Positions 37,934-38,270 of a stretch of 64,000 bases of DNA are shown one piece after another; within the stretch, counting starts at the first letter, position 1; each line of letters begins with the position of its first letter. The DNA is from Archangium sp. (GTDB lineage: Bacteria > Myxococcota > Myxococcia > Myxococcales > Myxococcaceae): contig JASGKS010000001.1 in NCBI GenBank assembly GCA_047600485.1, forward strand, positions 6,784,259 to 6,848,258. Reading direction: 5' to 3'. A program made the position numbers and the translations under genes. Under the pieces are notes generated by a model that had not been told where the DNA came from, did no database searches, and saw only the letters and a program-made list of their open reading frames with translations.

Positions 37934-38073
37934 CCCCTCGGCCACGGGCGAATTCCGCTCACGTTTGGGGGTGATGCAATCTGTACATGCCCGGGCAGGC
38001 TGGATTGCCGCACCCCCCGCTTGAGCCACGAGTTGGACCCCACCTGAGTGGAATTCGCACGAAGCCGAGGGGC
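37934..38073. repeat. structured palindromic element, copy 1 (nested hairpins)
   Basis: Outer stem cccctcggc/gccgagggg. Inner stems gggggtg/caccccc and gcaatc/gattgc around the loop tgtacatgcccgggcaggctg. Shares an ~100-bp core with copy 2. Confidence 0.6.
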
Positions 38074-38171
38074 TGCTCGCGTCGTGCAGAGCAGAGAACC
38101 GCCCCACCGTGCGGTGCCTCGATGCAGTGTGCGTTGCGCGAGAACTCCACGAGCGTCGCAGCCGAGACGAG

Positions 38172-38270
38172 CTCGGCCACGGGGGACCGCTCACGTTGGG
38201 GGTGGTCCAATCTGTACATGCCCGGGCAGTCTGGTTTGGACCACCCCTCTCGAGCCACGAGTTGGACCCG
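38172..38270. repeat. structured palindromic element, copy 2
   Basis: ggggtggtccaa / ttggaccacccc perfect 12-bp stem around tctgtacatgcccgggcagtctggt. About 85% identical to the copy 1 core. Lies 45 nt upstream of the hemerythrin start. Confidence 0.6.

Follow-up and report, generated by a model that had tools for sequence, protein, structure and literature searches.

In the 64-kb window (the whole stretch of Archangium sp. DNA that was analyzed; GC content, 66.8%), the 1.1-kb spacer between a 263-amino-acid gene and a hemerythrin gene (37201 to 38314) contains a palindromic element in two copies of the same orientation, a complete one of 141 bp (copy 1) and a partial one of 98 bp (copy 2). 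We tentatively read the pair as a MITE-like palindromic element that inserted specifically in this lineage, with one full and one partial copy and no demonstrated function, a reading to which we give a little less than an even chance. The element seems not to be a conserved hemerythrin regulator. An earlier sequence-only reading had offered a duplicated small-RNA gene, a MITE, and a cis-regulatory RNA for the hemerythrin gene as candidates.

The flanking genes encode, in order, a kinase, a hypothetical protein, hemerythrin, a hypothetical protein, and a CarboxypepD_reg-repeat protein. The downstream hemerythrin gene, which had been placed at 38315 before any database search, was confirmed there with Pfam, and its product was 100% identical to NCBI MFT3712111.1, from an Archangium sp. 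MAG. Copy 2 ends 45 nt before the hemerythrin ATG. Features are collected in Table 1; contigs of relatives are designated L020 to L027 (see below).

Table 1. Coordinates of the element, its parts, and its surroundings in the window
Feature	Position	Strand	Details
Upstream gene, 263 aa, no Pfam family	36409..37200	+	GC3 0.85; syntenic in L020, L021, and L022
Two tandem arrays in spacer	37241..37869	none	Tandem-repeat analysis
Array, 61-bp unit, 3.3 copies	37241-37438		Just after the stop codon of the upstream gene
Array, 21-bp unit, 21.3 copies	37424-37869		Same 1.1-kb spacer
Possible target-site duplication, left (TGCTCG)	37926..37931		One base before the end of copy 1
Copy 1, complete palindromic unit	37933..38073	none	Repeat and fold analysis
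Copy 1 outer inverted-repeat arms	37933-37964 / 38042-38073		32 nt; 27/32 complementary (84%)
Copy 1 inner hairpin	37967-38017		z -2.1 (+) / -2.9 (-)
Possible target-site duplication, right (TGCTCG)	38074..38079		Directly after copy 1
Spacer between copies	38074..38171		98 bp; local alignment versus shuffles
Copy 2, partial	38172..38269	none	Repeats, blastn, covariance model (110.8 bits)
Copy 2 inner hairpin	38198-38248		12 perfect pairs and a closing G-U
Ancestral promoter-proximal stretch, hemerythrin	38279..38314	+	Alignment with L020, L022, and L025
Hemerythrin HHE-domain gene, 140 aa	38315..38737	+	PF01814, E 2e-10; GC3 0.87

Within the window, blastn aligned positions 37937 to 38040 of copy 1 with 38172 to 38269 of copy 2 at 85.7% identity (105 columns; E value, 3e-25), which bears out the roughly 85% identical core noticed from the sequence alone; the two copies stood, and the start of copy 1 moved by one base (37933, not 37934). 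Both copies contain the same exact blocks of 22 nt (CAATCTGTACATGCCCGGGCAG), 18 nt (GAGCCACGAGTTGGACCC), and 12 nt, so that the apical 22 nt (invariant apical-loop sequence, CAAUCUGUACAUGCCCGGGCAG) and the 3' 18 nt are unchanged between them. None of 100 shuffles contained the 21-mer core. Several short perfect palindromes (TGTACA, TGCCCGGGCA) also occur in both copies.

The interior of copy 1 is Y-shaped and lies between imperfect inverted-repeat ends of 32 nt (end sequence, GCCCCTCGGCCACGGGCGAATTCC-like), within which both GAATTC sites fall; the outer stem and the gaattc-containing stem that had been described for this copy were both recovered as parts of that inverted repeat. Copy 2 is without the 3' outer arm and without the outermost 4 nt of copy 1's 5' arm, and it has neither a 3' inverted repeat nor a flanking duplication. 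Its perfect 12-bp stem, GGGGTGGTCCAA/TTGGACCACCCC, was found exactly as claimed (38199 to 38210 and 38236 to 38247).

Local alignments of the 98-bp spacer between the copies with the element, with the sequence before copy 1, and with the 21-bp array unit scored no better than shuffles, as did a search of that spacer for a third partial copy and a comparison of the 3' arm of copy 1 with the sequence after copy 2. The sequences before, between, and after the copies are thus mutually unrelated by local alignment, which argues against a plain tandem duplication. Copy 1 is flanked by the hexamer TGCTCG on both sides. A 6-nt direct repeat within 9-nt flanks was found at 1.3% of random 141-bp placements window-wide and at 10% of those in the local repeat-rich intergenic region; not significant against this local background, the flanking repeat is no more than suggestive of a target duplication.

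Copy 1 folded far better than its shuffles on both strands (z -5.6 on the + strand and -6.7 on the - strand). Copy 2 taken whole gave z scores of -0.8 and -0.9 on the two strands, and its inner hairpin gave -4.4 (+) and -3.7 (-), so the nested hairpins that had been described in each copy hold for copy 1 on both strands and, in copy 2, for the inner hairpin and not for the whole. The outer stem contains one G-T wobble favoring each strand. Since folding is equally good on both strands, with one wobble for each, the structure points to a DNA palindrome rather than a strand-specific RNA.

Neighboring genes had a GC3 of 0.85 to 0.91 and a GC2 of 0.40 to 0.55, versus a flat 0.64 to 0.75 in every frame of the spacer. 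Indels between the copies disrupt every reading frame, and a concatenated six-frame translation of copy 1 had no match at an E value of ≤10 among 5.8 billion predicted proteins. The region is therefore noncoding, and coding by small open reading frames, or by the 193- and 440-amino-acid open reading frames that run through it, was ruled out.

No third copy was detected in the 64-kb window with blastn (word size 7), a mismatch-tolerant pattern search, or a covariance model derived from copies 1 and 2. The proposed BLASTN check of the core, run in the window and in the relatives' loci, returned copies 1 and 2 and no further ones. The element arms had no other blastn match within the window, which also held no transposase or insertion sequence (IS) with matching ends; we know of no transposase or IS that has such ends. 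In public collections, the exact 18-mer core had 19 chance matches in GTDB representative genomes and the exact 20-mer core had 2 in JGI metagenomes, all without flanking similarity; three exact patterns had zero matches in IMG/VR, and plasmid and phage collections gave no blastn match. Even copies 1 and 2 themselves were missed by these scans of exact 18- to 20-mers, so the genome collection either lacks or masks the source genome, and the statement that there is no third copy covers 64 kb of the 9.42-Mb contig and the exact-word scans.

Hemerythrin homologues 83%, 76%, 74%, and 58% identical to that of the window led to contigs L020/L021, L022, L025/L026, and L027, respectively. The loci on L020/L021 and L022 are syntenic with the window (SAF-domain kinase, 263- or 245-amino-acid gene, hemerythrin, and a downstream minus-strand gene); L025/L026 have a different upstream gene, and the whole intergenic spacer in L025 is 18 nt long. 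The element was absent upstream of the hemerythrin orthologues at all four levels of identity, and at L020/L021, L022, and L025/L026 its absence was established with blastn (word size 7), local alignment against dinucleotide shuffles, and the covariance model. Local alignment against shuffles also gave no sign that the element is remotely homologous to the orthologous L022 and L020 spacers. Absence from the orthologous loci makes the element a lineage-specific addition. Two apparent links to the relatives were discarded: a 9-mer (CTCGGCCAC) common with their spacers was attributed to chance, and the equivalent stretch of L022, considered as a structured analogue, was unstructured (z -0.5). The kinase (34063 to 36393 in the window) is of the Ser/Thr protein type and has three SAF domains (ChapFlgA-like region); it is syntenic with the hemerythrin locus, and in L020 and L022 it adjoins a sigma-70 region-4 protein.

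The tandem arrays of the spacer have counterparts in the relatives. The 61-bp array, which has a 20-bp subperiod with GTGTAACG, shows 83 to 87% similarity to an array in the corresponding position of L020/L021 (L020, 5688 to 5744), in which a 20-bp unit is repeated 2.8 times. Arrays with a 21-bp period, about 21 copies, and a length of about 440 bp occur in the window and at the same place in L022 (9326 to 9763), between the 263- or 245-amino-acid gene and the hemerythrin gene, with different units (GGCTTCGCGAGCGTGCGTAGT in the window versus CGCACGCAGTCACGCCGGAGG in L022). Period (two helical turns) and length have been kept while the sequence turned over, and the composition is noncoding; these paired arrays may be more interesting than the element that had been flagged.

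Other palindromic repeats were seen in the window. An inverted pair with 56-nt arms (12359 to 12537; 86%) belongs to a CCCCTCTCCC-GCGA-GGGAGAGGG-TCGGGGTGAGGGTGA repeat, the "CCCTCTCCC...GGGAGAGGG-TCGGGGTGAGGG" family, one unit of which stands in the relatives' hemerythrin-upstream spacer (L020, 5833 to 5870; L021, 1325 to 1362; local score, 36 versus a shuffle maximum of 32). On these matches, the family is common to these genomes. Like the element, it is a small GC-rich palindromic intergenic repeat, and it occupies the L020/L021 spacer orthologous to the element's own; unlike the element, to which it is unrelated in sequence, it is found in more than one genome and locus. A palindromic repeat in that orthologous spacer implies that the spacer tolerates small palindromic repeats, and the stretch upstream of hemerythrin is evidently a tolerated landing site. 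Elsewhere, a near-perfect palindrome of 266 bp (61162 to 61427; arms at 61162 to 61236 and 61352 to 61427, 92 to 96% complementary, with a 115-nt center) lies between convergent open reading frames (59885 to 61123 on the + strand and 61449 to 62300 on the - strand) and may be a further MITE-like element or may terminate transcription in both directions.

The hemerythrin gene has a -10-like TAGCCT at 38302 to 38307, 7 nt before its ATG. A TAnnnT box stands 7 to 8 nt before the ATG at four loci, as TAGCCT in the window (within 38302 to 38314), TATCGT in L020 (within ~5955 to 5969), and TAGACT in both L022 (within ~9986 to 10000) and L025 (within ~1449 to 1461), with no Shine-Dalgarno sequence at any of them. 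The position of this box and the lack of a Shine-Dalgarno sequence suggest that the hemerythrin mRNA is leaderless, with a transcription start downstream of the element. We infer a promoter at ~38279 to 38307, downstream of copy 2, which would put the element upstream of the promoter and not in a 5' untranslated region. The end of copy 2 (38269) immediately precedes the stretch conserved with L022 that contains this putative promoter.

Of the three original candidates, the MITE was the best supported. In its favor are the inverted-repeat ends of copy 1, the 141-bp size, the possible 6-bp duplication, the noncoding character, the absence at orthologous sites, and the folding on both strands; both copies (141 bp and 98 bp) are within the MITE size range (<~600 bp) and have no coding capacity, and copy 2, with a 5' arm only, is at best a truncated member. 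Against it, local duplication yields two adjacent copies in the same orientation more typically than transposition does, and no third copy was seen in the window or in exact-word public scans. If the MITE-like reading is correct, a small noncoding palindrome of this type would have entered the repeat-rich spacer upstream of hemerythrin in this Archangium lineage, after its split from the nearest sampled relatives. The complete unit would be copy 1, whose 32-nt ends would have been recognized by a transposase supplied in trans, with duplication of the short target TGCTCG on insertion. Copy 2 would be a partial derivative that is immobile for want of its 3' end and that may have arisen either by a second, since decayed, insertion or by local partial duplication. 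We further infer that any effect on hemerythrin would be incidental, amounting at most to insulation from read-through or to a changed context upstream of the promoter.

A locally born, nonmobile duplication is a somewhat unlikely alternative, in which a hairpin-prone stretch would have arisen in a slippage-prone spacer, its core of about 100 nt would have been copied once nearby with no function, and quasi-palindrome correction (template switching within hairpins) would have sharpened the stems. Such an origin agrees with the two known copies lying only 98 bp apart in one orientation, with a spacer that already contains 61-bp and 21-bp arrays, with no copy having been found elsewhere, and with the five substitutions that, clustered at three adjacent stem positions, render the copy 2 stem perfect, as hairpin-templated correction yields. 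It leaves unexplained the 32-nt outer inverted repeat and the TGCTCG flanks of copy 1, the unrelated sequence around the copies speaks against simple tandem duplication, and the absence of the first copy from all relatives means that insertion or de novo origin would still be needed. The same stem bears on a quite unlikely reading, a young, lineage-restricted small-RNA (sRNA) gene pair, possibly exapted from a MITE, with the 22-nt apical loop as a targeting seed. Both copies retain a stable inner hairpin, in whose stem they differ by one exchange of G-C for C-G and by two mismatches that have become pairs; two G-U pairs lengthen this stem on the + strand only, and the apical and 3' blocks are identical. 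With two sequences, such stem changes do not tell selection on an RNA apart from quasi-palindrome correction of DNA on a hairpin template. By our own estimate, ~11 difference events in 105 columns would leave an identical stretch of 22 nt by chance, so the loop gives no sign of selection, and the opposite strand folds as well. The element was also absent from syntenic loci and exact-core scans.

The duplicated sRNA gene proposed initially found no positive support in known families or signals either. The suggested Rfam scan of the whole window matched no family at gathering thresholds, and at an E value of ≤10 its sole matches were miRNA-precursor noise, all on the long hairpin; ARAGORN found no tRNA or tmRNA genes in the window. 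No sigma-54-like, relaxed sigma-70-like, or intrinsic terminator pattern was present on either strand of the spacer (such consensus scans are weak for Myxococcota), and 37200 to 38330 held no GG-N10-GC sigma-54-like site. Tandem sRNA paralogues are documented for Pxr in the related genus Cystobacter (PMC5568312). Pxr of Myxococcus and Cystobacter, with its tandem paralogues in Cystobacter, shares with the element an intergenic position in myxobacteria of one suborder and a tandem pair of structured ~100-nt units; unlike Pxr, the element has other neighbors, no sigma-54 promoter, no conservation across genera, and no T-rich terminator of the kind at the Pxr 3' end. Pxr positions 13 to 33 and 48 to 111, rebuilt from primers printed in PMC5568312, matched nothing in 37930 to 38270, and nla19 (a sigma-54 response regulator) and the NADH dehydrogenase gene were not among the neighbors, so identity and synteny with Pxr were both rejected. 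A role as a DNA-level regulatory site, with the copy 2 palindrome and copy 1 bound by a regulator or serving as a block to read-through, is very unlikely. The copy 2 hairpin would lie ~30 bp upstream of the putative -35 region, copy 2 stops immediately before the L022-conserved stretch, and both copies have the short perfect palindromes noted above; orthologous hemerythrin promoters work without the element, a unit of 100 to 140 bp is far larger than usual operators, and there is no T-tract for intrinsic termination. Highly improbable is the cis-regulatory RNA that had been put forward, which would act as a riboswitch-like or attenuator leader of the hemerythrin mRNA. The element is on the same side as hemerythrin and close to its ATG, and the hairpin 5' arm could find in the 3' tail TTGGACCC an alternative pairing partner to the 3' arm. 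No orthologue carries the element upstream, no Rfam family matched, the equivalent region of L022 is unstructured, and the TAnnnT box without a Shine-Dalgarno sequence at four loci points to a leaderless transcript starting downstream of copy 2.

The MITE-like reading can be set beside known repeat families, namely, the ERIC/IRU repeats of enterobacteria, the Correia elements of Neisseria, and Nezha of cyanobacteria. The element resembles such MITEs and imperfect palindromic repeats in being ~100 to 150 bp long, noncoding, and intergenic, in forming an inverted-repeat hairpin on either strand, and in its possible short target duplication and its presence or absence between related genomes. What defines those families is a dispersed copy number in the tens to hundreds, whereas two adjacent copies of the element are known, one of them without an end, and no partner transposase is known; to our knowledge, it has no sequence similarity to any of the three. 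A retron msr/msd was rejected because no reverse transcriptase gene is adjacent, and retrons, attC sites, and REP/BIME were excluded (no adjacent reverse transcriptase or integrase, wrong end motifs, and wrong size). A full-text literature search found no description of MITEs in myxobacteria.

On present evidence, the element is fairly ordinary and of little significance. If the copies are transcribed, they would illustrate sRNA genes born very recently, and an sRNA pair, in parallel to Cystobacter Pxr, would be the second case in myxobacteria of sRNAs that arose de novo and were duplicated. Were the source genome to carry dispersed copies, the element would belong to a MITE-like family, the first to be described from an Archangium genome, and would also be a handy presence/absence marker.
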